From Thermodesulfobacteriota bacterium (lineage in GTDB: Bacteria > Desulfobacterota > Anaeroferrophillalia > Anaeroferrophillales > Tharpellaceae): a DNA stretch of 64,000 nucleotides. A model generated the notes under the pieces. That model saw only the letters and a list, made by a program, of their open reading frames with translations. It had not been told where the DNA came from and did not search any database. Positions 2,894-57,603 of this stretch are shown piece by piece. Numbering within the stretch: the stretch's first letter is position 1; every line of letters starts with the position of its first letter. The translations under genes and the position numbers were made by a program. The DNA lies in NCBI GenBank assembly GCA_024763535.1, contig JANTFH010000001.1, positions 7,337-71,336 on the forward strand, in the 5' to 3' direction.

Positions 2894-3091
2894 ATGCCGA
2901 AGATGAAATCGAACAGTGGAGCCAAAAAGCGCTTTAAGGTTACCGGTACCGGTAAAGTTGTGCGGCGCAAAGCTTATGCCAGCCATCTGCTGAATTGTAA
3001 GAGCCGCAAGCGCAAACGGAATCTGCGTAAGTCCACATTGCTGGACAGTGCCAACCAGGCCGGTATCAAACGGATGCTGCCTTACCTGTAG
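2894..3091 (+). CDS. rpmI: 50S ribosomal protein L35
   Basis: 65-aa basic protein MPKMKSNSGAKKRFKVTGTGKV..., positioned between infC and rplT. Confidence 0.95.
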   Translation: MPKMKSNSGAKKRFKVTGTGKVVRRKAYASHLLNCKSRKRKRNLRKSTLLDSANQAGIKRMLPYL

Positions 3092-3163
3092 ACTTTAAAT
3101 GACCGGGTTCGGCGGAAACCGGATGCCGGTATCAGCAACAATAATTTCAGGAGTTAAAGTAAA

Positions 3164-3530: not shown

Positions 3531-4547
3531 ATGAAAAACCGTTTACAGGGACTGCTGGCCGAAGCTCAAGATGCAATCAGCAAAGCCGTATCCCTTGAAG
3601 AGATTGAAAACCTGCGGGTCGATATTCTCGGCCGCAAAGGTAGTCTGACGGCGTTACTGAAGGGGCTGGCTGATCTGCCGCGGGAAGAGAAACCGGTAAT
3701 CGGTAAACTTGCCAATCAGATCAAGGAAGAGATTCAGAAAGCCCTGACCGCGGCCCACAACCTTCTTGATACGGCTGAGCGCGAACGTCAAATGGTTGCC
3801 GGGGCGGTGGATATCACCCTGCCCGGACGGCGTCAGCCGCGGGGTACGGTTCATCCGGTAACCCGGGTTACGGACGATGTCTGTGCGATTTTCAAAAGGC
3901 TCGGATTCAGTGTCGCCCAGGGTCCTGAAGTTGAGATTGACTACTACAACTTCGAAGCCTTGAATATTCCTAAAGATCACCCCGCCCGCCAGATGCAGGA
4001 CACCTTCTATGTTTCCGATGATGTGGTTTTACGAACGCATACGTCACCGGTTCAGGTGCGGGTTATGGAGGGTCAGGAGCCGCCGGTCAAGGTGATTGCT
4101 CCGGGCCGGGTCTACCGTTGTGATTCCGATCTTACGCACACTCCGATGTTTGATCAGATCGAGGGCCTGCTGGTTGATGAAAAGGTTACCTTCGCTGATC
4201 TTAAAGGGATTCTGGTTGCCTTTCTGCACGCCTTTTTCGGCCCCAAAGCCGGAGTCCGTTTCCGTCCCAGCTACTTTCCTTTTACCGAGCCCAGTGCCGA
4301 AGTCGATATTGAATGTGTGATGTGCAAGGGTAAGGGGTGCCGGGTCTGCGGGCAGACGGGCTGGCTTGAGATCTTAGGTTGCGGTATGGTCGATCCGGCT
4401 GTCTATAAATTTGTTGATTACGACCCTGAAAAATATAGCGGCTTTGCTTTCGGTATGGGAGTCGAACGCCTGGCGATGCTGCGTTACGGGATTGACGATC
4501 TACGGTTGTTTTTTGCTAATGATCTGCGTTTTTTAAGGCAGTTTTGA
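3531..4547 (+). CDS. pheS: Phenylalanine--tRNA ligase alpha subunit. Start moved to the ATG at 3531; the ORF-track start at 3426 overlaps rplT.
   Basis: [16 protein letters not shown]... N-terminus. Class II core motifs are present ([12 protein letters not shown], GxGxGxERL), as is the C-terminal zinc-ribbon-like CxxC..CxxC insertion. Confidence 0.9.
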
Positions 4548-7298: not shown

Positions 7299-7667
7299 TT
7301 GCTGAGAGAGGCGGATGTGGCCTCAGCCGAAAAAATTCCGGATAAACTCTATTTTCGTATAGGTGAAGCCAGCCGGCTGGTGGGGGTCAAGCCCTACGTC
7401 CTGCGTTACTGGGAAAAAGAGTTTACGGCGATCAAGCCGGAGAAAAGCAAATCCCAGCAGCGCCTCTACCGGCGGGCCGACGTTGTACTTTTCTGTCAGA
7501 TAAGACGTTTGTTGCATGAGGAGCGTTTTACGATTGAAGGCTGCCGCAAGAAGATTGCGGAACCCGTTGAAAAAGAACAGCCGGATAAATTAAATATCGA
7601 CTGTATCGCCCACTTAAAGAGCGAATTGCAGGCAGTCAGAAGTATGATCCAAAAACACAAGAATTGA
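7299..7667 (+). CDS. MerR-family transcriptional regulator. The start is uncertain: TTG at 7299 or GTG at 7317.
   Basis: N-terminal MerR HTH ([25 protein letters not shown]) followed by a coiled-coil-like tail. A MerR gene is commonly paired with ihfA. Confidence 0.75.
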
Positions 7668-7679
7668 AAACGGGACGTA

Positions 7680-7756
7680 GCGCAGCCTGGTAGCGTACCT
7701 GAATGGGGTTCAGGTGGTCGGAGGTTCAAATCCTCTCGTCCCGACCAATAAAACCA
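7680..7756 (+). tRNA. tRNA-Pro (anticodon GGG)
   Basis: 77-nt cloverleaf. Acceptor CGGGACG/CGTCCCG, D-arm AGCGCAGCCTGGTAGCGT, anticodon stem CCTGA/TCAGG with loop AUGGGGU (GGG), T-arm GGAGGTTCAAATCCTCT, discriminator A plus CCA. Confidence 0.85.
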
Positions 7757-7764
7757 AGCACCTA

Positions 7765-7798
7765 GCGTTAATTCGCTGGGTGCTTTTTTGGTTTGTGT
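7765..7798 (+). terminator. Rho-independent terminator after tRNA-Pro
   Basis: AAGCACC...GGGTGCT stem followed by TTTTTT. Confidence 0.7.
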
Positions 7799-8040
7799 TG
7801 CCTATTTGTTGCCTATGGGTTTTTTACTGATGTTTTTCCGCCAGTGAGAAGCGCCGAAGAGGTGGACGCCGGATAATCGGAGAAAGAGGCGTCCCAGGAC
7901 CAGGTCAGGCCGGTTTGCAAACTTGAAGGGATCAAAAAACAATACTCCAGGCAGAGTTGTATTTCTAACTTACCTGTGGAAGTATACGACGGTTTTTAAA
8001 AAAATTAAGAAACGGCGAAATAAGGGTCTTGACAAGGTTT

Positions 8041-8358
8041 TCAGCGGACCTTGCGGAGGCGGATTTTATCGAGCTGCCAGATTTGGCCGCGCCTGATCTT
8101 TAACTCGTAGCGCCAGGGGAAAAAATCATAAACCCACAACTCAACTTTGCATTGATGATAACCGTCGTCGGTTTCGCCGAGATCGACTTTCATATCCGGT
8201 TCACCGAATAAAGAGATTACATCGGCAACCGAATCGCCGACCTCGACCCGGCGGCCATCATGCCGCATCGAGTGCCGGGCAAAAACAGGGGCGGCCGTGA
8301 TCAGAATGAACAGGAAAGCGAGGAGCAGGGCGGTGGTTGAAATCTTAGTTTTCTTCAT
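8041..8358 (-). CDS. Small secreted hypothetical protein (signal peptide)
   Basis: 105 aa with an N-terminal MKKTKISTTALLLAFLFILITAAPVFA signal peptide. I did not recognise a domain. Confidence 0.55.
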   Translation of the reverse strand: MKKTKISTTALLLAFLFILITAAPVFARHSMRHDGRRVEVGDSVADVISLFGEPDMKVDLGETDDGYHQCKVELWVYDFFPWRYELKIRRGQIWQLDKIRLRKVR

Positions 8359-8359
8359 T

Positions 8360-8540
8360 TTTCAAGCTCCTTTTTTGGGGTGGGTTCGGATTTATCCGGG
8401 AGCCCGGCCAGGGCGTCCCAATAGCGCTGGCTCGGGGAGGTTGATAATTTTGAGAAAGCGCGGGGCGTGATGCCCCAGCGCTCGGCAACCTCTTTGCACG
8501 TCCAGCCCTATTGCCGGACGGCGGCAACGTAGGGTTTCAT
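8360..8540 (-). pseudogene. Short HTH-like ORF fragment interrupted by an in-frame amber codon. Possibly a remnant of an IS/phage DNA-binding gene.
   Basis: The minus strand reads MKPYVAAVRQ-TAG-GWTCKEVAERWGITPRAFSKLSTSPSQRYWDALAGLPDKSEP... The KEVAERWGITPRAF segment looks like a helix-turn-helix, and a stop follows codon 10. Confidence 0.3.
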
Positions 8541-8686
8541 TTAATCTCTCCCTTTTTCCCGGCCCGGCTTGATTGCAGCCGCCTTTATACTTATAAATGT
8601 AGTCTAAAAGTTCCGGTTTATCAAGGGGAATCAGTAGTTTCAATCCACGCTCCCATGAGGGAGCGACGAGTGGACATTGCCCTATT

Positions 8687-9505
8687 TCATAGATTCTGAG
8701 AGTAATAGACGATTGCATGATCATATCTGAAATCCGTGCTGCCGTCAGGGTCGCAGATGGAAATTGGTTCGCCATGATGGTCAAAACCGAAAACGGTTTC
8801 CGGGGGAAGCCTGGGTATCGGGTCGTCACCGTTGACGTAACGGAGGTGTCGTTTTGCTCGAAAAGCCCGGTCCAAGCGGCAACCGACCCTGGGCTCACCA
8901 AAGGTCACAACCTCTTCGAAGGGATAGCGCAGAGCCGAGATGGTCGCCATGGCGGCACCGAGGCTGTGACCTGTAACCCATACCGGTAGGCCGTGGGTTT
9001 CCTGCTGCAGCAGCGCCAGGATTCCCTCCCACAACTTATCCACCTCGCGCAGGAAGCCGCTATGTACTTTCACTCTGCCACTCTCATCTACAGCCTTTTT
9101 CCTGAAGTCTAAGTCGGCAAGTATATCATTGCCGAGAAGCAGCCAATGCTGCGGATCGAATCCGGGCTGAAGTAATCTGCCGAATAATTTATCAAATGAA
9201 TTGGCCCTTGAGTCGGAAAGGTTCTCTTTAAGCTGTGAACCTCTGAATGCCAGGATAGCTTTATCCGGCCAAACGGCGAGAAAGGCTTGAGCTCCGTGTT
9301 TGTCAAAGAGGTATAAACTTCGTACTCCCAAGCTGTTGATATGCTCCTTGAGTTCAGTCTCCTTGAGGTATGCGGCATGAGACATGTGCGCCAGTATTGC
9401 CGCCCGATTTTCAACCCATTTTTGATTGAAATCCTCCAGGTCACGGATCTTGGGCATCAGGGGGAATCTTTCGGGATGGAATACGGCGGCAAATGATTTA
9501 GACAT
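8687..9505 (-). CDS. Lipase class 3 family alpha/beta hydrolase
   Basis: 272 aa with a GHSLGAA nucleophile-elbow motif (VWVTGHSLGAAMATISAL) in Lipase_3-like context. Confidence 0.75.
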   Translation of the reverse strand: MSKSFAAVFHPERFPLMPKIRDLEDFNQKWVENRAAILAHMSHAAYLKETELKEHINSLGVRSLYLFDKHGAQAFLAVWPDKAILAFRGSQLKENLSDSRANSFDKLFGRLLQPGFDPQHWLLLGNDILADLDFRKKAVDESGRVKVHSGFLREVDKLWEGILALLQQETHGLPVWVTGHSLGAAMATISALRYPFEEVVTFGEPRVGCRLDRAFRAKRHLRYVNGDDPIPRLPPETVFGFDHHGEPISICDPDGSTDFRYDHAIVYYSQNL

Positions 9506-9587: not shown

Positions 9588-12500
9588 TTAACGCAGCGCC
9601 GGCAAACCGTCCAGAAGTACGCCGTCAGTGGTGCCATTGAGTTGAAATCCGACAAGTTTCCGGTCGGATCTGTAGGTTATGTAGGTCGCACGGCTGATAT
9701 CGCTGCTGAAAAGCTTTTCGGCAACCTTTACAACTTTTTCATATCCGTCCAGACTTATAGTTTGCGGCTTTCCCACCATATGGCCATCGTTGTCGTAGGC
9801 TGTCAGAGTGACCCGGCTGGCCTTTAGTGATGTAGCGTTAACCATGGCGATGCCGGTAAATCCATCTTTTTCAAGTTTTGGAAACACCCCTCTGGGTGCG
9901 CTTAAATTGACACTGGAATAGCCGCCCAGTTCCAGACCGTTACTGGTGCCGAACAACTCAAATCCGGTCATCGGCTGACTGGACTTGATTCTGAACCAGG
10001 CCGTTGCTTCCGGGAAGTCCAGAGCGGCAACAGAGCCTATAAATTTATCATGTCCGGTAAGGTCCAGGCTTACATTGGAGGTCAGGATTTTCCCCTCAGT
10101 ATTGAAAGTTGTAAAATTTAAGTGGCTGGTTGCAGTCGCACAGTTATAAGCTACAACCCCGGTCCACCATTCATCTGTAGAGGCAACATGGGGGTAGATG
10201 ATTTCGGTGGCACTGTCATCCTGCAGTAAGATGCCGGAGAGTTGCTTGCCGCTGCCGAAAAGTTCAAGCCCGATGATACCGGCACAATTTCTGATGACGG
10301 CCGACTGGATGCCGGTTTGGGGCTGGCCGGCAAACAGAGACCTGAGGCTCAGCGCCTTGTGTTCACCGGGATTAAGCTCCAGGGTTTGTTTCATACCATT
10401 ATCTGTTTCGATGAAAAGGGTGCGGGCGGAAGCGGTAACATTGACCAGACTCAAACCTGTAAACCAGTTGTCGTCCGAGGCAATGTGCGAGACGAAGATA
10501 TCTTTTTGATTGAGTTCCCTGACAGCCGGAATTGCGACCCGGTAGTTGCCGGCAACGTAAAACTTGGTATAGCCTGCCAGCGTATCGCCGGAGGCGGTGA
10601 AAATGATGTAGCCGATCCGGTCCGGATCGCTGAAGGTCGTGCCGACGGTAATCTCGCGTCGTCCCCGGGGCGGCAGCACAACATCATCTATTTCAGAAAC
10701 CGGGGTTCCGTCATCAGCGTAGGCTTTAAAAGTACCGGTTATGGTGGAATCGGCACTTAAATTGATAACGCAGATCTCAGTTTCCCAGTTATCCACCGTG
10801 GCAATATGGGGGTAGTAGAGGCAGTCGGGTTTACTGACCAGGTATTTACCGATTGCCTGGTTGCCGTAGTTGTCGGTTGCCTCGACCCGCACCAGATAGT
10901 TGCCGGGCCGGGCATAGGTGTGGGAACAGGCACTGTCACTGAAAGGGCCCTGCGGGCTGCTGCCGTCACCGAAATCCCAGCGGTAGTAACTGCCCCAGGA
11001 GTTAATGACCGGAGAATCCAGCAGAGCCTGAAAGCTCTTTTCGGTAACCGTGGAGTTGTTTCTCTCGACAATCGCAGCGGTCGGCTCATCCGCCATCCAG
11101 TTAAGAAAAATGCCGAGCAGTTTTGATCGGGAAGTACGGTGGGCCTGGTCGTTAATACCTTCAAGCCCAAAGCTGGCATAGATGGCGCGGATGGCAGAAG
11201 GCGGCTCGGGAATTCCCAGACTGGGCTGGAAGCGGTTTGCCTGAGCGACAATCCCGTATTGGTTATTGTTCTTATCCGGGTAACAGAGTAAGGCCGGCAA
11301 GTGAAGCCGCCGCAAATCCGCATCTTCGTACGTGCACATCTCATCGATAAAAAACTGGTTTCCGGCCCCGTCTCCACTGTCGCTTAAATCGAGATGGATA
11401 TTCTTAAAAGCTGAAGGCGCATCCGCAAAGGCAACAATATCATGTTCCGGCAGTTTTCCGTCGGTCAGTCCATGCTGCCATACAAGTCCGTTGAGGATGT
11501 TGTCCCAGAAGAATTTTTCACCTTCAAAGGCATCACCTTCAGAGAATATATTAGAAATGTTCTGTCCCATGGCAATTATATGACCGCCGCCATTGGCATA
11601 TTCAGTCAGTCTGTCGGTATACAGATTGTCCATGGGATTCCAGTTGTCTCCGGAGAAATAGACCATGGCCGGATAGCGGGCGAGTTTTGCCGCTTCCGGT
11701 ATGAGGTTGTCGGCCGGTTGGGCATCCACATCCCAGACATCATAACTTTTACCGAGTTTGTCAAGAGCCTCAGTGTAATATTTGCGATAATCTTTTTTCT
11801 CCTGATCGGCGCTGCTGCCGTCGTTGTCGACCAACAGTATCTCTCCCGAAGATGGTCTGACGATCCGGGCCCAGAAAGGGAGGTGGGCGTTGTGAGCTTT
11901 GCCACTGAGTACAATGAATCCCTGGAGGTCGCCACTGTTAACCCTGTCATTGGTCGTGTCAATTGTTAACGTCAGCGTGGTAGAGGTTTTCGGTTTTAAC
12001 GTCAGCTGCGCCGGGGAGAAACTTACACCCTCCATGCTTTTTTCATGGCCGTCCGCGGCCCGTGGGTTAAAAATGGAAACGGTGTAGGTTTCCGGATTGG
12101 GAGATATATTGGTAACGGTTACAGTGAGAGATTTGTTTTTCCCTTTAGCTACCCGGCCGAAACTGACTGAGGGCGGCTGACAGATGATGCCGGGGTCGAT
12201 CACCCGGGTCAGATCGAGGCGGCCGGCACCGATTTCCAGGGGCAGGGCGGGAAGATCATTATCTACCTTTATGCCCTTAAACCTGGAAGTCGTCATGATT
12301 GCCGATTTAATATAACTGTTGGGCCAGTCGGGATGAACCTGGAGAATCAGGGCTGCGGCCCCGGCCACATGCGGGGTCGCCATTGAGGTTCCTGAAGCAA
12401 TTCCAAAGCCTAAATGGCGATTCTCGCCGGCGGCATAGGGGTCATAGCCTTGCGAAAGGATCCGGACTCCGGGGGCAGTAATATCGGGTTTTAAGACTTC

Positions 12501-46198: not shown

Positions 46199-47545
46199 AT
46201 GATAAGACTTTTTTTTAAGAATAAAATACTACTGGCGGGGCTGCTTCTGGTACTATCCGGATGGCTGGTGGCCGGATTTCTTTTTTTTGCGGGCCGGCCG
46301 TCGGGCCCGGCTCGAGAGATTACGAGGGCCGATGCCGCGAGCCCGAATGTATTGCCCCATGATGTTTCTCAATCGAAAGTTCAGCTGCCGGCGGAAACCG
46401 CGCTGGCTGCAACTGTGAAAGTGCCGGAGATTAAAGAGTTCGCCGGTACAATTAAGCGGGGTGAAACCTTAAGCTCTCTGCTTGGAGACTATTTAAGCGG
46501 CCATGAAATATGCTGTCTGGCTGAACAGTGCGAGGATACCTTTTCGGTTAAAGATATCCGGGCCGGCCGGCCCTACTGTATGCTTTTTGAAGATGGCTCA
46601 TTCAAATGCTTCACTTATGAAATTGATGCTGATGAACAGCTGCTGATAAACTATGAGGGCGAAAAGTTTAAGATAAGCAGAGCGGCGATTGCTTACCAGG
46701 TTGAACGCTCGGTCATATCCGGAACCATCTCAAGCTCACTTTTTCTGACGATTGCTGAACTCGGAGAGAGAGCGGAACTGGCCTGCCGCCTGGCCGATAT
46801 ATTCGCCTGGGATATTGATTTTATGCGTGATTTACGGCCGGGCGATTCTTTTCGGGTGCTGGTTGAAAAGCGTTATCGTGCCGGTGAATTTGCCGGTTAT
46901 GGTACCCTCCTGGCAGCTGAATTTATTAATCGGGGTGAGACCTTCGAGGCAGTTTACTATAAAGATAAAGAGAAATCGGCCTACTATGATCGCAATGGCC
47001 GCAGCCTGAAAAAGGCTTTTCTTAAAGCCCCGCTTGTCTATAGCCGGATCTCTTCGACCTACAGCAACCGTCGTTATCATCCGGTGTTAAATATCTATCG
47101 ACCGCACCGGGCGATAGATTATGCAGCCCCGGTTGGAACTCCGGTTCGGGCGGTGGCCGGCGGGGTGGTTACGCAACGCAGTTATGACCGGCAAAATGGT
47201 AATAAAATCCGTTTGCGTCACCCTAATCGATATGAAACGACCTACATTCATCTAAGTCGTTTCGGTCGGGGAATTAAGGTCGGTAGCAAGGTTGAACAGG
47301 GCCGGGTTATCGGTTACGTCGGGGCCACCGGTCTGGCTACCGGACCCCATCTTGATTTCCGGGTTTTTAAGAACGGTCACGCGATTAACCCCTTAAAGAT
47401 GGAACGAATTCCGTCGGCGCCGCTCCCGAAAAAAGATTTGCCGGAATTTGCGCTCAAAGCTAAGGAGTATTTTGCCGCATTGGCCGGTGACTTACCGTTG
47501 AAACGGGCCCGGAAACAGATTTCAGATGCCGGCAAAGATAGCTGA
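46199..47545 (+). CDS. M23-family peptidoglycan metalloendopeptidase (OapA/LysM-less type)
   Basis: N-terminal TM/signal. C-terminal Peptidase_M23 motifs (HRAIDYAAPVGTPVRA; HLDFRVFKNGHAINP). Confidence 0.85.
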   Translation: MIRLFFKNKILLAGLLLVLSGWLVAGFLFFAGRPSGPAREITRADAASPNVLPHDVSQSKVQLPAETALAATVKVPEIKEFAGTIKRGETLSSLLGDYLSGHEICCLAEQCEDTFSVKDIRAGRPYCMLFEDGSFKCFTYEIDADEQLLINYEGEKFKISRAAIAYQVERSVISGTISSSLFLTIAELGERAELACRLADIFAWDIDFMRDLRPGDSFRVLVEKRYRAGEFAGYGTLLAAEFINRGETFEAVYYKDKEKSAYYDRNGRSLKKAFLKAPLVYSRISSTYSNRRYHPVLNIYRPHRAIDYAAPVGTPVRAVAGGVVTQRSYDRQNGNKIRLRHPNRYETTYIHLSRFGRGIKVGSKVEQGRVIGYVGATGLATGPHLDFRVFKNGHAINPLKMERIPSAPLPKKDLPEFALKAKEYFAALAGDLPLKRARKQISDAGKDS

Positions 47546-47566: not shown

Positions 47567-47986
47567 GTGATGAAACATTTTCGGCAGGAGTTATGGTTTT
47601 CAACTTCCGCCCGGCGGGAGTTTATCAATATTACCCCGGAAGTAGCAAAGTGTCTGCTGGAAAGCGGTATTCAGGAAGGTCTCTGCTTGGTCAATGCGAT
47701 GCATATTACAGCTTCCGTTTTTATCAACGATGATGAGTCCGGCCTGCATCATGATTTTGAGCTCTGGTTGGAAAAACTGGCACCGCACGCGCCGACTTCG
47801 CAATACCGGCATAACGGCTTTGAAGATAATGCCGACGGTCATCTCAAACGGCAGATTATGGGGCGGGAAGTCGTGGTCGCCGTCACCGGCGGTAAACTCG
47901 ATTTCGGCCCTTGGGAACAAATATTTTACGGTGAATTCGACGGCCGGCGCAAGAAACGGGTACTGGTTAAGATTATCGGCGAATAA
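47567..47986 (+). CDS. yjbQ: YjbQ/UPF0047-family protein (secondary thiamine-phosphate synthase-type)
   Basis: 139 aa with the conserved YjbQ core ([21 protein letters not shown]...). Confidence 0.75.
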
Positions 47987-48137
47987 TCATTTTGTCATTT
48001 CCCTCGGTTTACCGCTCTTGATCTGTCTATAGCTTGGTAAATCATGCCTACCTTTCAACGTTTCGCATCAGCGGCGCGGCATGTCCGCGGGCATATAGAT
48101 GTTAGACGGTGCCTTTCCGCATCGATTCAGTCTGACC

Positions 48138-49463
48138 TCATACGCATTTCGAAAGGAGGCGAAATATCACGAAAATGAGCCCTATTGACAGGTAAGCGGA
48201 CATTGCGAAATAGAACGCACCAATGTTATTAACCGCAAGGTAATACACGAGGAGAGAAGCGGTGATTGCCATTAATATGATGCCGAGAACAACTGGGGTT
48301 ATGGCTGTACGTGTATTCTCGCGCAACCGCAGATTGGCTATACAGACACCAATCGACACCAACAAGAACGTTAAGCTCGAGAATGATGCGATGACTTCAA
48401 GACTCCCCAGTGCCGTCAAAGCGACTGATATCGCCGTTATGACAACAGCAGCGGCAGCAGGTACGCCTGTCCTATTGCGAAAAGAAAATGCCTTCGGAGC
48501 GAGATTATCGTTGGAAATCTCGTAGGCGAGATGGCTCGCCCCAAAAATCGTGGCGTTAATTGCTGAGGCCGTTGCAAGCATAGCGGCTACATCGACCAAT
48601 ACAACACCGAATGTCCCCAAGATCGGCTTTGCGACGGCAGCAAGTGCGTATTCTTCGGCAGCATGAATCGCAGACACATCTAAATTGCCGACCGCAACCA
48701 AAGCAATGACAACATAGATTACCGAAGTTATTCCGATCGAACCGTACAGCCCCCTCGGGATATTGCGTTCCGGATCGCGTGTTTCACATACCGCATTCGT
48801 GATCAACTGAAAGCCCTCGAAAGCTACAAAGATGAGGGCTCCACCCAGGAAGACGGAACTGGCGCCATGGTCGAATAGAGGGCGGACCCGAGATGGGTCT
48901 ATTGTGTAGAAACCAACGGCCGCAAGCAGTGCCAACAGCGATATCTTTATATATACGGCAATATCCTCTGCTTTACCCATCGTACTGGCGCCGAGAAGAT
49001 TGATCCCCAGGAACATCAGCAGAATGCCACCAGAGAAAAACATTCGAAGGAGTGGTGAGTCAGTGAGGCCAAATAGGTGTGATGTATAGGCCCCAAACGT
49101 GAAAGCGTAGAGGGAAAGCGTGCCAATATAGCCAACGACAATGGTCCAGCCGGCAATGCCAGCAATCGCAAGCATTTTCGGGAATGCTTTTTCAAGATAT
49201 GTAAAGCTGGCACCATCGCTGTGGTAAGTAAGGGCAAGACGCACATAGCTGTAGCCAGCCACGACAGCAATAACGCTTCCAATCAGAAACGCAAACGGAG
49301 CAGCGTGCCCGCTGATATCGACGGCAAGTCCCAGAATTGAAAAAATTCCGCCGCCAATCATTCCACCTACGCCGATTGCGATCAACTCGACGAAGCCCAG
49401 GTTCTTCTTCTGTGAGCCACACGTTGGCGCATTGCTGGATTTTTGTATCTCACGTCCCTTCAT
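48138..49463 (-). CDS. APC-superfamily amino acid permease
   Basis: 441-aa 12-TM protein with a glycine-rich TM1 (IAIGVGGMIGGGIFSILG) typical of APC transporters. Confidence 0.8.
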   Translation of the reverse strand: MKGREIQKSSNAPTCGSQKKNLGFVELIAIGVGGMIGGGIFSILGLAVDISGHAAPFAFLIGSVIAVVAGYSYVRLALTYHSDGASFTYLEKAFPKMLAIAGIAGWTIVVGYIGTLSLYAFTFGAYTSHLFGLTDSPLLRMFFSGGILLMFLGINLLGASTMGKAEDIAVYIKISLLALLAAVGFYTIDPSRVRPLFDHGASSVFLGGALIFVAFEGFQLITNAVCETRDPERNIPRGLYGSIGITSVIYVVIALVAVGNLDVSAIHAAEEYALAAVAKPILGTFGVVLVDVAAMLATASAINATIFGASHLAYEISNDNLAPKAFSFRNRTGVPAAAAVVITAISVALTALGSLEVIASFSSLTFLLVSIGVCIANLRLRENTRTAITPVVLGIILMAITASLLVYYLAVNNIGAFYFAMSAYLSIGLIFVIFRLLSKCV

Positions 49464-49475
49464 TGCCCTACATCC

Positions 49476-49545
49476 GTCTAACGTTCAGGATCACGGGATG
49501 AGAAACGCGCGCGTTTCTCAGTACCGTGGGTCCTCTTGTTCGCCA
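49476..49545 (-). repeat. attC-like recombination site / hairpin overlapping the 3' end of the methylase gene
   Basis: Minus strand reads GGCGAAC-aagag-GGACCCACGGTACTGAGAAACGCG|CGCGTTTCTCATCCCGTGATCC-tgaac-GTTAGAC. This fits R''-5nt-L''/L'(imperfect, bulged)-5nt-R', with GTTAGAC matching the GTTRRRY core. The mate heptamer GTCTAAC recurs at 48101-48107 after the permease. Confidence 0.4.
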
Positions 49546-50351
49546 TTTTTTTTCAGGTAATTTGAAATTACTACCTCGGTAGTTCCTTTTCTGTGTTTTG
49601 ACGAAGACGCGAGCCGACTGAACCTACGTACCGTCATCTGTTGCCAATATTTGGCTTGATACAATTCGTGAATGCAGTGGTGGTCTGCATTGGATATGAA
49701 AATACTTACTCCGCGTCTGGCAGCTTTCGCAAGACAAGCTGCAAGGCGTTGTTGGTCAGCCCATGAGAAGATACGTTCATTATACTTGAGAAAGTTATTA
49801 TTGTTATGGCGTACGGTATAGGGAGGGTCTATATATAAGAAATCACCAGTATGGGCTTGATCTATTGTGTCTGCAAAATCGCATGAGGAAAGGTTTGTGT
49901 TTTGCAAAAGAGCGGACACTTCTTCAAAATTATCTGATGGTAGAACGACCTTCTCTTTTGTTCCTTTCGGAACATTAAAGACACCCTGCAAATTGACCCT
50001 GTAGAGGCCGTTAAAACATGTTCGATTCAAATATATGAACCTCGCGGCCTGCGTGGCTATCGACTGCGGAGATTGCTGCCGAATATGGTAATAGTAATCA
50101 TGGCAGTGCAATCGGTGATGTGTCAGGAGATGACGTTTCACCCTGCCAGGCACATCTCGCAATGCTTTGTAGGTAGATATTAATTCCTCATTAAGATCAG
50201 ACAGGATTGCAACCTTGGGTTGCAAGTGAAAGAATACCGCTCCACTGCCTAAAAATGGCTCAATATATCTTTTTGCATTCTGTCGTAGCCATGTGTCGTA
50301 CCCGGATACAAGCCAACGCTTGCCTCCTGCCCATTTTAAGAATGGTGTCAT
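49518..50351 (-). CDS. Dam-like N6-adenine DNA methyltransferase (D12 class)
   Basis: N-terminus FLKWAGGKRWLV...EPFLGSGAVF and catalytic DPPY (LYIDPPYTV), collinear with E. coli Dam. Confidence 0.85.
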   Translation of the reverse strand: MTPFLKWAGGKRWLVSGYDTWLRQNAKRYIEPFLGSGAVFFHLQPKVAILSDLNEELISTYKALRDVPGRVKRHLLTHHRLHCHDYYYHIRQQSPQSIATQAARFIYLNRTCFNGLYRVNLQGVFNVPKGTKEKVVLPSDNFEEVSALLQNTNLSSCDFADTIDQAHTGDFLYIDPPYTVRHNNNNFLKYNERIFSWADQQRLAACLAKAARRGVSIFISNADHHCIHELYQAKYWQQMTVRRFSRLASSSKHRKGTTEVVISNYLKKNGEQEDPRY

Positions 50352-52678
50352 TCTGCCACCTCTTGATTTGAGGCTGCGAGATCCTCTGGGTTAAGGCGTC
50401 CCATAAACTCCTCATAGATATAGTCAATATATTCAAAATCAATTGGTTTATAATGGCGTTTTTCAGTTGCGTGAGCAGGTATCCTCCTCAGTTCATTGAT
50501 CCGTTCCATCCATCGGACATTCTTTGAGTAACCCTTTTCTCCTGGTTCAGGAATGTCGAAAAGAGATTTGAATATATTCCAATGAACCTTGTTCTCAACG
50601 ATTTTTTTGTATTCGATGAAATCAAGGTAGTTTTCTAATGGGAGCCTATCCTCATCGTCATCATCAAGTGATTTTTCATAAGCACGCGTTTTGATTTTCT
50701 TGTCAATTACGCCTTTGTTCCAGTATGCATCACCATCTGTCCCATATTGTTGTTTGAATGTGGCGAATATTGTTTTTTGCACATGAATATTGAGTTCCTT
50801 AAGTTTCTTGTCGGCATCGTCAACAAGTTCCTCTGATTGTCCTTTTACCCATTCGTCCATACCTTCTGGAGAAAAATCAGAGAATGATTCACAAATCATT
50901 TGGCAAAGACGGTAATAGTATTCACGTGGACCACCCGATCCAAATTGAACCTTGAAGCGTTTCTCTATTTGGCTTGCGGTTGCTTCGCTGAGCCACAGCA
51001 GGATGGGATCCATGTACTCTTCGACCTCCGAGACTAGATCATTGGGCTCAAGCTCTCTCGCAGACAATCCTTTGTTGGATTCCATATAATCAACTAGTGA
51101 ACTAAACAGCTTTAAGTATGCCTGTAGCGCAACGTTTGTACATAGATAGCCTTGGCGACCAGATTCCCACTGGGTTACATTAGCGTTCGCCAGTAGTTGA
51201 AAGAAACTGTTCAAAGCCGATCGTGCACGATCGAGAGTCGCTGTGTCGTTCGTTCCGCAGAGCACTCCCGGGGCAAATTCTTTCTTCTTTAGTATAGCTT
51301 CACCAACCAAACCAGATCTACGAAGTCCATCTTTCAGAGCTGGTACTGTTAAACATGTTTTCTCTGTAGGAGAGATTCCCTGTTGAGTCACCCGACCATA
51401 GAGAGGTTCGCCTATATCGTTATTCAATAATCCAATGAGCCTGGCGCTTACAGCACCAATTCGTTCTGTCGGGCGATCTGACCCCCATTTCAATTCTCCT
51501 TCTAAATCATCCAACAAGGTTTTGGGTACGGATTTTTGCTCATGATTAATTGTAACAAAAAGGTTGGCCTCTTCTTCTTTCTTCAAGTTTTCGAAAGCGA
51601 CAACCATAATATTTTGATTCAGGTGTTTGTCTGATAACGGGGCGTATCCATAGAGTCTGTGCTGTCCGTCAATAATCCAAGCAGATCTGTATTGAGACGG
51701 CAAATATAGGTTCCCAAATATAACGTTCGTCTCTTCATCTTTGGCGACGTGTTCAAAGCGACATTTGCGAGAGAAATTCACAAGAATATTTGTAGGGAAG
51801 AATCCACCGCCATGAATAAAGCGAGAAACCTGGCGAAGCCGTGTTCTGCTAACAAGTCGCTGGTAGGATGGTGCTCCAGCAGGATCATTCAGGGATCGGT
51901 GGTTCACAAATGCAATTTTAAGCATTTGCTTGGGCGTTGAGACAAAAGAATAGAAAACTTTTCCTCCAAGTTTGCCCCTTACAGCGGGTACATGAATACC
52001 GTCCATCTCAGGTATCTTCTGGTCTTGCAGAAATTCAGCTAAGAACTGAAAGCGTGCTGCCGCTCTGAGGTGATCGGCAATTTGCACGTAATACCTCAAT
52101 TGCTTTTCCGTTATGATATTGATGCGTGCTCCAGCCGCACGTTGCCTATCCGGTTGAGACCATGCAATGTTGCTTGTTACAAATAGCCAGATAATCTTCG
52201 GCTTGTAATGAGGGCCATAATGCTTCTTTATCGCGTTTGCGATTGGGCTTTTAAGGTTTGCAAACTCCTCTATGTCTTTTTGTAAGCTTCGGCGAGTGAT
52301 GCGGGCGGAAGATTTACATTCGGTGACAACGACAGTTTCGTCGTCTTTTGCTAATACATCAATCTGCTTCGTATAAGGATCAGCACCTTTGCGCTTGATT
52401 GTAACCTGAAAGTTTCTTCCCTCGCTAATTTCAGGATAGCCAAGCAAATGAAAGAGGTACCATACTTTGTTTTCCAGTTTTTCGTCATGGGACCATGGTT
52501 TGCGTATGCGAGTTTTGATCTTCAGCTCTTTATCCACTTCCCATCCATCGTCAATATATTCTTGGACGCTAGATTTCAGAACAGAGAGTTCTTTATATGC
52601 TTTTCTTCGCTTGGCGGCCTCTCGCTTTAGCTTCTTGCTGTCTGTGTATATTGAATTTAGCCATTCTGTATCTGGCAT
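50348..52678 (-). CDS. Large DGQHR-domain protein with an N-terminal PD-(D/E)xK nuclease-like module, translationally coupled to the Dam-like methylase
   Basis: 776 aa. N-terminal D...E-x-K motif (IDVLAKDDETVVVTECKSS). DGQHR motif (WIIDGQHRLYGY) within a DndB/ParB-like segment (GGGFFPTNILVNF...FVTINHEQK). ~350-aa C-terminal region without a recognisable motif. Stop overlaps the methylase ATG (ATGA). Confidence 0.7.
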   Translation of the reverse strand: MPDTEWLNSIYTDSKKLKREAAKRRKAYKELSVLKSSVQEYIDDGWEVDKELKIKTRIRKPWSHDEKLENKVWYLFHLLGYPEISEGRNFQVTIKRKGADPYTKQIDVLAKDDETVVVTECKSSARITRRSLQKDIEEFANLKSPIANAIKKHYGPHYKPKIIWLFVTSNIAWSQPDRQRAAGARINIITEKQLRYYVQIADHLRAAARFQFLAEFLQDQKIPEMDGIHVPAVRGKLGGKVFYSFVSTPKQMLKIAFVNHRSLNDPAGAPSYQRLVSRTRLRQVSRFIHGGGFFPTNILVNFSRKCRFEHVAKDEETNVIFGNLYLPSQYRSAWIIDGQHRLYGYAPLSDKHLNQNIMVVAFENLKKEEEANLFVTINHEQKSVPKTLLDDLEGELKWGSDRPTERIGAVSARLIGLLNNDIGEPLYGRVTQQGISPTEKTCLTVPALKDGLRRSGLVGEAILKKKEFAPGVLCGTNDTATLDRARSALNSFFQLLANANVTQWESGRQGYLCTNVALQAYLKLFSSLVDYMESNKGLSARELEPNDLVSEVEEYMDPILLWLSEATASQIEKRFKVQFGSGGPREYYYRLCQMICESFSDFSPEGMDEWVKGQSEELVDDADKKLKELNIHVQKTIFATFKQQYGTDGDAYWNKGVIDKKIKTRAYEKSLDDDDEDRLPLENYLDFIEYKKIVENKVHWNIFKSLFDIPEPGEKGYSKNVRWMERINELRRIPAHATEKRHYKPIDFEYIDYIYEEFMGRLNPEDLAASNQEVAE

Positions 52679-52857
52679 GTCATTTATCTCCTCTATTTGT
52701 GGCGAACATTGTTAATAACTGGAAAAAGTATGTTATATTTTATAACTGTACGATTTTTCCATAAAATTCGATATCAAATTTAGAGACATGGAAGAATCTT
52801 TCCATGCTATCAATTTTCTCTAAGTCCATCTCTTTGTTGTAGTGCTACCACATACAT

Positions 52858-53135
52858 TATGGAAAATAAATCAAAATTTACGTCGAACCCTCAACTCAAA
52901 TTGATGGATCAGGTGCGGGAAACGTTGCGTTATCATCATTACGCTTATTCGACTGAAAAAACTTATTGTCAGTAGATTACACGCTATATCTGTTTTTTAC
53001 GATAAAAAACATCACCTCCGAGATATGGGCGCTATGGAGATCTAGCGTTATTTGTTGCATCCGGCATCACCTGAGCATGTTGTCGCTACGACTCAGCGGC
53101 AGGCATTGAATGCGCTGGTTTTTCTCTCTCCTCTC
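52858..53135 (+). pseudogene. Decayed N-terminal fragment of an integron-type (IntI/XerD-like) tyrosine recombinase
   Basis: Reads MENKSKFTSNPQLKLMDQVRETLRYHHYAYSTEKTYCQ-stop-ITRYICFLR-stop, then after frameshifts TQRQALNALVFL. This is collinear with the IntI N-terminal SAM-like domain (..[32 protein letters not shown]...QALAALLFLY). No catalytic domain follows. Confidence 0.55.
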
Positions 53136-53199
53136 AGGTTTTATCTCCCACCTTTTTATATAAGAAAATTCCGGCCGAAAATTTTTTTTATCACCTCTC

Positions 53200-53228
53200 T
53201 TGACATTCGAAAATGTCGTAATTAATTT
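53200..53228 (+). promoter_or_regulatory. Sigma70-like promoter with an embedded palindrome upstream of the hsp20 pair
   Basis: TTGACA, then a 17-nt spacer, then TAATTT. The perfect inverted repeat GACATTcgaaAATGTC overlaps the -35 and spacer. Confidence 0.4.
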
Positions 53229-53394
53229 TTTTTCCAGAAGGCGGAAAGAGGCCTTTATGGATTGTTATGAAAGATGAAATCACTTGGTCTTTCAGGTGGT
53301 TGAAGGATGTCCGGCCAGGAATTGAAAGTTTCCATCGGACGTGGGGCCGGATAAATTTTAACCCTAAAAATTTTTATTAAAGGAGGGAATGGTT

Positions 53395-53841
53395 ATGTGG
53401 ACAAGAGTTAGTGATATTGACCGGATGTACGGGGCTATGGATCTGCTGCGCTCGCACATGAATCGACTGTTCACCGATTACGACAGAGGCTTTGGTGATG
53501 AGTTCGGCTGGAGGGTTGCCGAAGCCGCGCCGCGGACAAATCTTTACGACAATGGAGATCAGTTTGAGGTTCGAGCGGAGGTCCCGGGTTTAAACAAGGA
53601 CGATCTGAAAATTATGATTCAGGGGAACTATCTCGAACTCAGCGGCAGCCGCAAGTCCGAGGCTCCTGAGGGCTATAAAGCCCATCGGGTGGAACGGGGT
53701 GATGCCAGCTTTACTCGCAGTTTTACTCTACCGTCCGATGTCGATGTGGATAAGGTTGAGGCCGGTTTGCAGAACGGTATCCTGACGCTCACCTTGCCGA
53801 AGGCCGAGGCGGCCAAACCGAAACAGATCGGTATTAAGTAA
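53395..53841 (+). CDS. Hsp20/alpha-crystallin family small heat-shock protein
   Basis: Alpha-crystallin domain (FEVRAEVPGLNKDDLKIMIQGNYLELSG...GILTLTLPK). ATG 53395 is 7 nt after a GGAGGG SD. Confidence 0.85.
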   Translation: MWTRVSDIDRMYGAMDLLRSHMNRLFTDYDRGFGDEFGWRVAEAAPRTNLYDNGDQFEVRAEVPGLNKDDLKIMIQGNYLELSGSRKSEAPEGYKAHRVERGDASFTRSFTLPSDVDVDKVEAGLQNGILTLTLPKAEAAKPKQIGIK

Positions 53842-53883: not shown

Positions 53884-54270
53884 ATGAGTGAAAATAAAAA
53901 AATAGCGACCCGCAGTGAAACCCTGGCCGAGCGAAGCCGTGAGATTCCGGTTATCTCGCCTATGGTTGATATTTATGAAAATGATGATGAAATCCTGCTG
54001 CACGCGGATATGCCCGGAGTGGCCAAGGAAGATATTTCGGTAAATGTTGATAACGGCAAACTCCTGATCTCCGGGGTGCGCAGTCTCAAGATCTCCGGCG
54101 CCGCTAACTGGGAGGAGTTTGGTGATGTTGAGTACCGGCGTACCTTCTCGGTGCCTCAGAGTATTGATGTTGCCAAGGTCAATGCCGAACTTAAAGACGG
54201 GGTTTTGAAACTCCATCTTCCCAAATCAGAAGCGGCCAAACCGCGCATGGTTGAAATTAAAGCGGCTTAG
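53884..54270 (+). CDS. Hsp20/alpha-crystallin family small heat-shock protein (second copy)
   Basis: ILLHADMPGVAKEDISVNVDNGKLLISG...GVLKLHLPK. Confidence 0.85.
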   Translation: MSENKKIATRSETLAERSREIPVISPMVDIYENDDEILLHADMPGVAKEDISVNVDNGKLLISGVRSLKISGAANWEEFGDVEYRRTFSVPQSIDVAKVNAELKDGVLKLHLPKSEAAKPRMVEIKAA

Positions 54271-54405: not shown

Positions 54406-57400
54406 CTAGAGCATATCCTTTATTTTACCCCGTGAAAAAAACGGATAGAGGGCCGGCAGGACGAAGAGGGTGAGTAGCGTCGCACTGACGAGGCCGCCGA
54501 CGATGACGGTTGCCAGAGGTTTTTGAATCTCGGCGCCGATGCCGTTTGAAAGCAGCATCGGGATAAGACCCAGGGCCGAGGTTGCGGCCGTCATCAGCAC
54601 CGGCCTGAGGCGGGATGTGGCCCCGGCAAAGATTGCTTCCGGGAGTTTGAGGCCGCCGCTGAGGCGCAGGTTAATGCTCTCCACCATGACCACCCCGTTT
54701 AAGACGGCGACCCCGAAAAGGGTGATAAAACCGACCGAACTGGGCACCGAAAGATACTGCCCCGATACGTAGAGGGAAACCACGCCGCCGATTACAGCCA
54801 GGGGCACGTTCATCAGAATTAAAAGCGCCTGACCGATGGAGTTGAAGGCAAAATAGAGGAGCAGGGCGATTAAGGCGAGAGAGAAAGGCACCACCAGAGC
54901 CAGCCGTTTCTGGGCCCGCCGCTGATTTTCAAACTGGCCGCCGATAGCTACCGAATAGCCGGGTGGTAATGCAACCTGAGCCGCGATAGCCGTTTGAATA
55001 TCGCTGACCACACTTCCCATATCACGATTCTTTATATTGGCCTGGACCACCACCCGGCGCTGAACATCATCCCGGCGGATTTGGGGCGGGCCGGATTCGA
55101 TGGCGATGGCGGCAACATCACCGAGCCGAACCAGGGCCCCGGTGGGTGACTGCAGACGCAACTCGGCAATGGTTCGGGGATTGTCGCGGAAATCTTTTTC
55201 GAGGCGCACATAGATATCATAACGTTCATTACCGTTGATGATCTGGCCCGCGGCCCGGCCGCCGAGGACGTCCCGAACCAGGTTCATAACGTCGCCTACG
55301 GCCAGGCCGTAGCGTGAGAGGCGGCGGCGATCCGGGCGAATGACGAGCTGGGCTTCCCCGGCGATCTGCTCCATGGCGACATCACGGGTACCCTCGATAC
55401 TCTGTACAACTTTGGTTATCTCCCGGCCTTTGGCCGCGAGTACGTTCAGTTCCGGGCCGAATATTTTAATTGCGAGCTGCGCTTTGACCCCGGAAAGCAG
55501 TTCGTCAACCCGGGTGGCGATCGGTTGGGAGAAGTTCAGCAGAAGCCCGGGAAACTGTTCCAGTCTCATCTCCATCATCTCCTGTAACTTCTGCCGGTCT
55601 GGAGCACTGGTCCACTCTTTTGCCGGTTTTAGGCCGACAAAAATCTCAATATTATTGACGGGCTCAGGGTCGCCGCCGATCTCGGCCCGGCCGATCCGGC
55701 TGGAGGCGTAAGTGACTTCCGGAAATTCAAGAAGCATGGCTTCCAGTTTCGGAGCCACCGCCAGGGCGGTATCAAGGCTGGCCGACGGGGCCAGAGTGAC
55801 CCGCAGATTAAGTGTTCCCTCCTCCAGCTCCGGCACAAATTCGGTGCCCAGTTGTGGGATCAATCCCATAACCGCGATAAAAACTATAAGTGCGGCGCCG
55901 ATTACTGTTTTTCGATGGTGCATGGTCCAGTTAAGACCCCTTCGGTAGAGCCAGGCGAGGGGTTTTAAGAGCAGGCTTTCGCGTTCTCTGATACCGCTGC
56001 GGAAAAGATAGGTCGCCAGTGCCGGAACAATGATTAAGGCGACCATGACCGAGGCGATAATCGCGATAATAATACTGATTGCCAGCGGCTGGAAAAGTTT
56101 GGCTTCGACACCTTCAAAACTGAACAGCGGCATGAAAACGACAAGAATAATCGAGGCGGCAAAAAATATCGGCCGGGCCACCTCCTTGCCGGCCTCCTGC
56201 AGGCGCAGGGCGATCCCCCGCCGGTCCCGGGTTACGTCGTGGGGGTCGGAATCATCCCCGGCAGTATTGCCGGGGATGTCCTGCTTGTGAACCGGATCGG
56301 GGTGGGAGAGGTGTTTGAACATGTTCTCGACCATCACCACCGAGCCGTCGACGAGCATGCCGATAGCCACCGCCAGGCCGCCTAATGACATCAGGTTGGC
56401 GGAAAAACCGAATTGCGCCATCACCATCAGAGCGATGCCGATCGAGATGGGAACCGAAATCAGCACCAGCAGAGTGGCTCTTAAATTCATCAGGAAAAGG
56501 GCGAGAATAACAACGATAAAAATGAAAGCCAGAGCCAGGGTATGGACGACCGTGCGTACCGCTTTTTCGATCAGGTCGGCCTGATTGTACATAACCTTGA
56601 ACTCCACTCCCTGAGGCAGCGCCTGGCGGATCAGATCGATGCGTGAGTTGATACCGTCGATGGTGGCTTTGGTGTTGGCGCCCATGCGTTTCAAAACGAT
56701 TCCCGAGACCACTTCGCCCCGGGATTCCGCCTCACCGTCGGCGTTTCGGCCGGTTACGGTTACCGCCCCCTGACGGATTTCGCTGCCGAATTCGACCTTG
56801 GCTATATCGGCGATCCGGATAATTTTGCCGGCGATGGTTTTCAGCGGAATTTCGCGGATCTCCGTCAGGCCGGTGCGGCCGTGGCCAAGCCAGCCGACAC
56901 CCCGGATAACCAGCTGCTCCTGACCCCGGTTCAGATACCAGCCGCCGGCATTCCGGTTGTTGTTCTCCAGCGCCTGAAAAACATCGTCCTGGGTCAGTCC
57001 GTAGGCGAGCATCCGGTTGGGGTTAAGGTTTACCTGATATTGGCGCACACTGCCGCCGAAAGAGAGAACATCAGTGATGCCGTCAACCGGCATCAGCAGC
57101 AGTTTTACGACCCAGTCATTGAGACTGCGCAGTTTCATCGTATCATAATCAGAATCGGGCTCAGCGATCAGCAGATATTGGTAGATCTGGCCGAGACCCG
57201 AGGTGTTGGGCCCCATTTCCGGAATTCCGACCCCCTGCGGGATCAGCTCTTTGGCGCTCTGCAGACGTTCGAAGACCAGCTGTCGGGCAAAGAAAATATC
57301 GGTCTTCTCTTTGAAAACCACAGTGACTCCGGAGAGGCCGGTTTTAGAGATTGAACGGACCTCTTCAACATCCGGCAGGGCATACATCACCGACTCGATG

Positions 57401-57603
57401 GGGAAGGTAATCAGTTGTTCGACCTCGGCCGCCGCCAGGCCCGGAGCTTCGGTATTGATCGACACCTGAATATTGGTGACGTCGGGAAAAGCATCAAGAT
57501 TTAAGCGCGGAATCATGAAAAAAGCCGCGATAGTCAGTGTGAACAGAGAGATAACCACCAGCAGACGGTTGCTCACGGCCCAGTCAATTATTTTATTTAA
57601 CAT
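54406..57603 (-). CDS. czcA: Heavy-metal efflux RND transporter, CzcA/CusA family
   Basis: 1065 aa with 12 TM and two large periplasmic loops. HME-RND signature in TM4 region (ALGMLVDGSVVMVEN). Confidence 0.85.
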   Translation of the reverse strand: MLNKIIDWAVSNRLLVVISLFTLTIAAFFMIPRLNLDAFPDVTNIQVSINTEAPGLAAAEVEQLITFPIESVMYALPDVEEVRSISKTGLSGVTVVFKEKTDIFFARQLVFERLQSAKELIPQGVGIPEMGPNTSGLGQIYQYLLIAEPDSDYDTMKLRSLNDWVVKLLLMPVDGITDVLSFGGSVRQYQVNLNPNRMLAYGLTQDDVFQALENNNRNAGGWYLNRGQEQLVIRGVGWLGHGRTGLTEIREIPLKTIAGKIIRIADIAKVEFGSEIRQGAVTVTGRNADGEAESRGEVVSGIVLKRMGANTKATIDGINSRIDLIRQALPQGVEFKVMYNQADLIEKAVRTVVHTLALAFIFIVVILALFLMNLRATLLVLISVPISIGIALMVMAQFGFSANLMSLGGLAVAIGMLVDGSVVMVENMFKHLSHPDPVHKQDIPGNTAGDDSDPHDVTRDRRGIALRLQEAGKEVARPIFFAASIILVVFMPLFSFEGVEAKLFQPLAISIIIAIIASVMVALIIVPALATYLFRSGIRERESLLLKPLAWLYRRGLNWTMHHRKTVIGAALIVFIAVMGLIPQLGTEFVPELEEGTLNLRVTLAPSASLDTALAVAPKLEAMLLEFPEVTYASSRIGRAEIGGDPEPVNNIEIFVGLKPAKEWTSAPDRQKLQEMMEMRLEQFPGLLLNFSQPIATRVDELLSGVKAQLAIKIFGPELNVLAAKGREITKVVQSIEGTRDVAMEQIAGEAQLVIRPDRRRLSRYGLAVGDVMNLVRDVLGGRAAGQIINGNERYDIYVRLEKDFRDNPRTIAELRLQSPTGALVRLGDVAAIAIESGPPQIRRDDVQRRVVVQANIKNRDMGSVVSDIQTAIAAQVALPPGYSVAIGGQFENQRRAQKRLALVVPFSLALIALLLYFAFNSIGQALLILMNVPLAVIGGVVSLYVSGQYLSVPSSVGFITLFGVAVLNGVVMVESINLRLSGGLKLPEAIFAGATSRLRPVLMTAATSALGLIPMLLSNGIGAEIQKPLATVIVGGLVSATLLTLFVLPALYPFFSRGKIKDML

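Follow-up and report, generated by a model that had tools for sequence, protein, structure and literature searches.

The 64-kb window studied here, i.e., the whole stretch of Thermodesulfobacteriota DNA that was analysed, holds between yjbQ and hsp20 a 5.1-kb island in which a broken integrase-like reading frame faces away from three genes of the opposite strand. This raises the question of whether the island is what is left of a chromosomal integron and, if so, which of its genes were captured as cassettes. According to our analysis, the locus is very probably a decayed, now immobile chromosomal integron with two intact cassettes, one carrying a DGQHR-domain protein together with a Dam-family methyltransferase, the other an amino-acid permease. 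The listing of open reading frames (ORFs) combined with family scans gave, on the minus strand, an APC-family amino-acid permease (441 amino acids, aa; 48138-49463), a Dam-family D12 m6A DNA methyltransferase (277 aa; 49518-50351) and the DGQHR-domain protein (776 aa; 50348-52678), and, on the plus strand, the broken IntI-like frame (52859 to ~53126). This gene order had been described by an earlier reading of the letters, hereafter the sequence-only reading, and it was confirmed: the genes read as cassettes are co-oriented and diverge from intI, as is required of an integron. The island, which that reading could not match to a described element, fits decayed integrons, i.e., clusters of attC sites lacking integron-integrases (CALIN) beside an intI pseudogene (Cury et al., 2016, NAR, PMC4889954). 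We regard it as a degenerate, CALIN-like integron in which an N-terminal stub of intI survives. The interpretation as a sedentary integron remnant is supported by the origin of the stub in an IntI clade, by the attC arrays found in relatives and by the cassette boundary signature. The count of three cassettes was revised to two, since the DGQHR and Dam genes recur together and form a single unit. Loci used for comparison are designated below by L numbers.

Cassette boundaries and attC sites

The first six bases of an integrated cassette are the end of its own R' core, so that G followed by these bases is expected to be complementary to the R'' of the same cassette. Both units of the window begin with TTNNNN complementary to their own R''. 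Cassette 1 (DGQHR and Dam, about 3.2 kb, 49482..52706, minus strand), delimited by its domains, by the conserved gene pair and by this signature, opens with G|TTCGCC (52707->52701), 29 nt before the start codon, which is complementary at 7/7 positions to R'' GGCGAAC (49544->49538). For cassette 2 (the permease, about 1.4 kb, 48059..49481, minus strand), which was delimited by the boundary signature and starts with TTAGAC, G|TTAGAC (49482->49476) lies 19 nt before the ATG and is complementary, again at 7/7 positions, to R'' GTCTAAC (48107->48101). On the plus strand, the latter pair corresponds to the heptamers GTCTAAC (49476-49482) and GTTAGAC (48101-48107), whose presence on either side of the permease had been pointed out beforehand. 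In simulations, the chance of a 7/7 boundary complementarity was about 0.017 per unit, and the same pattern is shared by most cassettes of the L018 and L019 arrays. Across the window, the heptamer signature was found at 2 of 47 crude genes, the permease and yjbQ.

The junction between attI and cassette 1 (G|TTCGCC, 52701..52707, minus strand, read 52707->52701) is also the exact point where homology among DGQHR-Dam copies starts. Identity to L014 and L029 rises there, from about 42% over the 30 nt preceding the G to about 70% over the 30 nt that follow. Coming from the other side, the homology upstream of intI that runs across the clade stops at the same junction, AACAATG|TTCGCC.

The attC site of cassette 1 (attC1; 49476..49544, minus strand) is designated from the top match of a covariance model, from its fold and from a homologous hairpin in L014 and L015. 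It consists of R'' GGCGAAC, a 5-nt spacer, a bulged imperfect palindrome, a second 5-nt spacer and a hybrid R', G|TTAGAC (49482->49476). The imperfect palindrome claimed at 49476-49545, overlapping the Dam stop codon, does exist and folds with a z of -3 as it stands; when its own R' is restored, it folds in the manner expected of an attC, with an R box, a spacer, a bulged L box and a loop (-21.1 kcal/mol, z -5). L014 and L015 retain the hairpin that covers the Dam stop, as a perfect 48-nt palindrome showing compensatory differences relative to the window. A terminator intrinsic to the DGQHR-Dam module had been considered as the sole explanation of this hairpin and was dropped given the attC matches of L017 and L014 and the G|TT boundaries. 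Besides, the attC1 hairpin contains GATC (window 49490-49500), and the L014 palindrome (~11165-11215) has GGATCC at both ends. GATC is the usual target of Dam-family methylases, and methylation of this motif might, as pure speculation, affect the attC1 site.

The site closing cassette 2 (attC2; 48053..48107, minus strand) is degenerate. It extends from R'' GTCTAAC (48107->48101) to a hybrid R', G|TTGAAA (48059->48053). Its 3' half, CCGCGCCGCTGAT-N7-CGTT, has 13 consecutive bases and the CGTT spacing in common with a true attC of L019 (5782-5841), and its overall layout parallels that of the L018 attC at 6568-6626. In its present state, attC1 retains the geometry of an attC, and half of the terminal attC appears eroded.

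A covariance model (R1) was built from ten short attC sites of relatives only, aligned with their R-box and L-box pairs. As controls, held-out true attC sites of other lengths scored 15-25 bits, and about 110 kb of non-integron loci gave no match at E <= 10. Over the 64-kb window, searched on both strands with filters off, the minus-strand site 49544->49476 was the best match, with 11.2 bits and E 1.9 (E 0.15 for a search of the 5.1 kb only). The site proposed from the letters therefore ranks first in the window and on the right strand, but the score itself is low, and the site proposed after the permease gave no match. A strict motif-plus-fold attC scan recovered the sites of the relatives and about 10 background loci in the window, with nothing in 47.9-53 kb, and was non-discriminating. 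An Rfam scan of 44-56 kb returned sub-threshold chance matches only, with no attC family among them.

One cassette or two

Several observations weigh against an integron with two cassettes. The 11.2 bits of attC1 lie under the 15-25 bits of held-out true sites, its L-box pairs are non-canonical in the R1 alignment, and its R'' GGCGAAC departs from RYYYAAC and lies within conserved Dam coding sequence; by the covariance model alone, the attC claim is not established. No promoter with a sigma-70 consensus that would read into the cassettes was found by a scan of the stub and of the sequence beside it. The other points concern the permease, and most of them would equally be explained if DGQHR-Dam were the only cassette and the permease an ordinary chromosomal gene beside attI, GTTAGAC then being derived from attI and GTCTAAC a coincidence. 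The three genes had been described as more AT-rich than the flanks, which was verified for DGQHR and Dam (GC content 0.40-0.45; 0.36-0.38 for the intI stub) but not for the permease, whose GC content of 0.49-0.52 is that of the flanks. The permease is also long for a cassette, both units (3.2 and 1.4 kb) being long compared with typical cassette sizes. The attC2 site (48107->48053) has no match under R1 and folds weakly (z -1.7 to -2.4). Permease homologues with 68-88% identity occur in varied settings, and the closest ones lie in non-integron contexts, i.e., after an aldo-keto reductase gene (L024), between an RND pump and CorA (L023) or near Lon (L025); when metagenomes were scanned with the permease as query, L023 was the one locus returned, and it has no integron features. 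Finally, yjbQ is flanked by GTTGAAA (47497-47503) and its complement TTTCAAC (48053-48059), an occurrence of the heptamer signature in the window that is apparently due to chance. TTTCAAC here coincides with the R' of the terminal attC-like site. The possibility that yjbQ is a third cassette, in inverted orientation, was rejected and its heptamers were judged to be a chance match, given that the adjacency of the M23 peptidase gene and yjbQ is conserved in L002 and L003 and that no model match was obtained.

The single-cassette explanation is nevertheless unlikely. It has to attribute to coincidence a 7/7 match of G|TTAGAC with GTCTAAC at the very positions expected of a cassette, at the chance of about 0.017 given above, and it leaves aside the 13-nt identity and CGTT spacing that attC2 has in common with the L019 site and the layout that it has in common with the L018 site. 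Moreover, in L026 and L027, a 72%-identical permease shares a same-strand array with attC sites and with toxin-antitoxin modules (PemK, VapBC). The L026 array is suggestive of a permease unit bounded by attC sites outside the window. The permease is an accessory gene whose neighbours change, and it is probably, though not certainly, a cassette here. The L026/L027 run comprises DUF998, PemK, VapB/PIN, SnoaL, Na/H antiporter and PMT_2 genes and several small ORFs, with clear attC sites in L026 at 3058-3121 and 9374-9425; the run is probably an extensive array made of cassettes of unusual length.

Origin of the integrase fragment and of cassette 1

A more radical alternative is that of a generic defence or genomic island acquired by a non-integron route, in which the hairpins would be transcription terminators and the integrase fragment the vestige of another tyrosine recombinase (phage, Xer-type or otherwise). 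The perfect 48-nt palindrome of L014 and L015 is indeed terminator-like, the attC model scores of the window are not significant by themselves, and in L016 the DGQHR-Dam pair adjoins a 480-aa phage-type integrase, which is not an integron. Against this alternative, the hairpin over the Dam stop has no T-tract and is flanked by AAC and GTT at the 5-nt spacing of attC. The decision comes, besides, from the integrase fragment and its relatives, and from the other copies of cassette 1.

The fragment (52859..53126, plus strand) comprises the N-terminal ~89 codons of intI, corresponding to the SAM-like domain, as established from the sequence, its frames and profile matches. From 52859, the plus strand encodes MENKSKFTSNPQLKLMDQVRETLRYHHYAYSTEKTYCQ, followed by TAG, and after a change of frame ...TTQRQALNALVFL, ending near 53126. 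The peptides were as first described, but the frame starts at 52859 rather than 52858. It begins MENKSKF...TYCQ, and similarity stops after ...QRQALNALVFL near 53126. Three lesions interrupt it, namely a TAG at 52973-52975, a position occupied by Trp in homologues, a +1 frameshift caused by an extra T within the run 52993-52998, and a second TAG at 53043-53045. Everything past codon ~89 is deleted, catalytic domain included, and no catalytic-domain remnant was found in any frame of the window locus, as the sequence-only reading had stated. The part that would contain the IntI-specific insertion is also deleted. With ~89 N-terminal codons, two stops and one frameshift, there is no functional integrase, and the locus is not a complete integron.

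Once repaired, the stub peptide matches Pfam PF13495 (E 1.2e-18), and the only NCBIfam models that it matches are those of integron integrases, TIGR02249 (positions 1-74 of 315, E 5.7e-16) and PRK15417. It is 79% identical to a database homologue (P0001) and 69% identical to the N-terminus of an intact 323-aa integrase of L020, which itself covers positions 2-315 of 315 of TIGR02249 at 430 bits, for a cut-off of 265. The matches to IntI models only and the identity to the L020 IntI indicate that the recombinase fragment is derived from IntI and not from a phage or XerC integrase. Each of the 120 best matches of the stub in the database is a short protein, of 85-155 aa, that contains PF13495 only. 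This could suggest a stand-alone family of short SAM-like-domain proteins, of which the window frame would be a decayed member and not the pseudogene of a full integrase, but this explanation is virtually discarded, as the C-termini of the short proteins fall at differing points within the IntI sequence, many of these proteins sit on very short contigs, and the rest of intI lies downstream in L013, L018 and L020. Indeed, intI of L013 (Desulforhopalus vacuolatus) extends, after a change of frame, into the catalytic domain and is truncated further on, and L018 and L020 have the catalytic region as separate downstream fragments that match TIGR02249; the close homologues of these three loci are likewise frameshifted or truncated intI genes with downstream catalytic remnants. 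The variable ends of the short homologues, these continuations and the intact L020 integrase together point to the descent of the stub from a true IntI clade, whose genes are commonly decayed.

Close homologues of the stub head cassette arrays that are located on the opposite strand and have canonical attC sites (RYYYAAC...GTTRRRY); such sites were found in intergenic regions of L018, L019, L020, L013 and L026. In L018, about 17 small genes lie on the strand opposite intI. A similar array is present in L019, where a gene for a reverse transcriptase (Pfam RVT_1) comes shortly after an attC. In L013, ZorA/ZorB-like, TIR, SLATT and ThsB-TIR genes lie on the strand opposite the frameshifted intI stub. 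As minor features of these arrays, the L019 stretch at 7423-9357 has ~800 nt of non-coding sequence between the RVT_1 gene and the attC, and by its layout the gene looks like a group II intron inserted at the attC. L013 has attC-like sites at 4027-4090 and 5057-5147 and, at its far end, two tRNA-Met genes (499-575 and 1470-1546), so that part of the L013 island may have integrated at a tRNA gene.

The region between intI and cassette 1 (52708..52858), presumed to contain attI and regulatory sequences, was aligned with L013, L018, L019 and L020. It carries TGGAAA/TTTCCA inverted repeats, TGGAAAAAG (52720-52728), TTTTTCCA (52754-52761) and ATGGAAGAATCTTTCCAT (52788-52805), and the same repeats are found upstream of intI in L013 (9780-10006), L018 (9790-10006), L019 (9820-10006) and, at two places, L020 (2080-2294 and 4520-4733). 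These repeats could be integrase- or regulator-binding sites of the attI/promoter region.

As for cassette 1, the stop codon of DGQHR and the start codon of Dam overlap, the two genes being translationally coupled. The pair recurs at 60-89% protein identity across phyla (Desulfuromusa, Verrucomicrobiota, Kiritimatiellales, a Thiodiazotropha symbiont, Coriobacteriia, Ignavibacteria and Deferribacterales). Such a distribution indicates that the two genes are transferred horizontally together. The same unit is accompanied by attC sites in other loci. L017 has a canonical attC that starts at the Dam stop (GGCTAAC...CGTTAGAC; 25.6 bits, E 2e-4). L014 has an attC-like site (13.1 bits, E 0.44) whose end, ...GCG|TTCTCC, falls exactly where the similarity to the window starts, and a further one (16 bits) lies after the next gene. 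The sequence upstream of the unit in L029, a third and unrelated one, likewise adjoins it at G|TTAGCCACAA. With homology breaking at G|TT in three independent contexts, a canonical attC after Dam, and a stub that matches only IntI models and true IntI relatives, the latter heading attC arrays, a generic island is highly improbable, and we retain the decayed integron. Many DGQHR homologues lie on contigs of 3.3-3.6 kb, near the cassette size, which would fit assembly breaks at the ends of a cassette sitting in several contexts. A plasmid search with the DGQHR protein returned distant homologues only (about 32% identity, e.g., pNL1), with no methylase partner.

Proposed decay of the integron

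According to the proposed scenario, an integron integrase would formerly have been encoded from 52859 onward on the plus strand, with attI just upstream, and would have captured circular cassettes by recombination at G|TT. This integrase was later inactivated by the two nonsense mutations, the frameshift and the loss of the sequence past codon ~89. As a consequence of this inactivation, the cassettes are frozen in place. All three cassette ORFs are full length relative to their homologues and, for this reason, are probably still in use. The layout of the locus, its sequence homologies and the boundary signatures are observed features, and both past recombination and the expression of the cassettes from a putative promoter are inferred.

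Predicted function of cassette 1

The Dam-family methyltransferase is recognised by TIGR00571 (245.6 bits, cut-off 114.85) and by the PADLOC model MTase_II (E 3.8e-94). In the 776-aa protein, the DGQHR domain scores 143.8 bits with TIGR03187 (cut-off 58.85), and Pfam DndB scores 39.6 bits (cut-off 29.1). The equivalog scores are far under their cut-offs (71 vs 300 for DpdB and 70.5 vs 450 for DGQHR_dnd_1), and by these scores the protein is not an equivalog of DndB or DpdB. No dnd or dpd genes are present nearby in the window, which is not what a Dnd or Dpd system would show. An AlphaFold2 model of the protein has a mean predicted local distance difference test (pLDDT) of 78, with about 85-93 for residues 1-220, and matches PD-(D/E)xK nucleases (Cdn1, VC1899, Can2, Card1, AF1548, MspJI and McrC). 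In the nuclease motif, compared over 32 homologues, D107 and C121 are invariant, and E120 and K122 are present in at least 90%. The DGQHR motif (residues 337-341) is invariant over the same homologues, and a C-terminal NxLRRxxxH motif (residues 728-736) is conserved, including N728, L730, R731, R732 and H736. The architecture of the protein is thus a predicted N-terminal PD-(D/E)xK fold, a DGQHR/ParB-DndB-like domain and a helical C-terminus.

In PADLOC, the DGQHR-Dam pair matches no named system, only generic methyltransferase models and, weakly, a DpdB-like one, and the 776-aa protein matches none of the restriction-enzyme models. A sequence search of the PDB with the DGQHR protein found nothing. 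Based on domain content and on the structural model, cassette 1 most likely encodes a restriction-modification (RM)-like defence pair, in which the predicted nuclease would restrict unmethylated DNA while the methylase would protect the host. A further proposal is made tentatively. The unit may represent an undescribed RM-like kind, combining a PD-(D/E)xK nuclease, a ParB/DndB-like DGQHR domain and a helical C-terminus with RxxxxH, protected by Dam and spreading among phyla in the form of an integron cassette of unusual size (about 3.2 kb), whose attC is a near-perfect palindrome with GATC sites over the methylase stop.

Comparison with known integrons and defence systems

As in decayed chromosomal integrons (PMC4889954), a dead intI lies here beside attC-bounded cassettes of the same orientation that diverge from it, the junctions are of the G|TT type, and R'' is complementary to the 5' end of its own cassette. 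Unlike them, the window keeps only an N-terminal intI stub and only two cassettes, and both its attC sites are under the scores of true sites in the R1 model. Recognisable intI pseudogenes were reported near 15 of 279 CALIN in a screen that relied on a C-terminal IntI profile (Cury et al., 2016). Because the stub is N-terminal only, it would escape such a screen.

Defence systems have been described as integron cassettes, which are reported to be small and streamlined (bioRxiv 10.1101/2024.07.02.601686 and 10.1101/2024.07.02.601719), and two-gene defence cassettes with a methyltransferase, such as Toutatis, are among those reported (bioRxiv 10.1101/2024.07.02.601686). Cassette 1 is in line with these studies, as a defence-like unit in cassette form made, as Toutatis is, of two genes including a methyltransferase partner, and so is the intI stub of L013, which faces ZorA-like, TIR, SLATT and ThsB-TIR genes. 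Cassette 1 differs from streamlined cassettes in the 776 aa of its nuclease-like protein, its role in defence being here a prediction. With Type II RM systems that have a Dam-family (D12 class) methyltransferase, cassette 1 shares a TIGR00571 enzyme, a PD-(D/E)xK-like partner and translational coupling. However, this partner adds the DGQHR (ParB/DndB-like) domain and a long helical C-terminus with the conserved NxLRRxxxH, and it matches no restriction-enzyme family model, cleavage being only predicted. The DGQHR domain is also common to DndB and DpdB of the phosphorothioation and 7-deazaguanine systems, from which the 776-aa protein is distinguished by its additional nuclease-like N-terminus and its methyltransferase partner.

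Decayed integrons and defence cassettes are already known, and the locus adds an example that does not alter the established view of integrons. Its particulars are the N-terminal-only stub, the large defence cassette and the near-palindromic attC of that cassette. It illustrates the decay of an integron in an under-sampled, uncultured lineage of the sulfate-reducer type, with the integrase reduced to a stub and the captured genes intact. Screens that need the C-terminal domain of IntI and strong attC scores would probably miss such remnants. Hence, cassette-derived genes may be under-counted. Besides, the DGQHR-Dam pair, being widespread and cassette-borne, is a reasonable candidate for an uncharacterised RM-like defence system.

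Flanking regions

On the left of the island, the plus strand carries an M23 peptidase gene (46199-47545) followed by yjbQ/UPF0047 (47567-47986). On the right, two hsp20 genes (53389-53841 and 53884-54270, plus strand) precede an RND pump gene (54406-57603, minus strand); these features, too, were taken from the listing of ORFs and from the family scans. In the stretch that separates the stub from hsp20 (53130-53388), a promoter-like TTGACA-N17-TAATTA is present at about 53201-53228. A GC-rich stretch with hairpin potential lies just 5' of the hsp20 ribosome-binding site and matches no Rfam thermometer family.

The sequence-only reading had presented yjbQ and hsp20 as conserved flanks. Relatives for flank synteny were gathered by a genome scan with the M23 peptidase as query, and they are metagenome-assembled genomes of Thermodesulfobacteriota. 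Only L002 and L003 keep yjbQ among them, and in neither is hsp20 beside it. L003 is the only one having yjbQ plus downstream sequence, and other genes come after yjbQ there. The first of these (8675-9226) encodes 183 aa and, by eye, resembles the helix-turn-helix C-terminal part of a transposase-associated protein, which suggests that the site following yjbQ is a variable spot.

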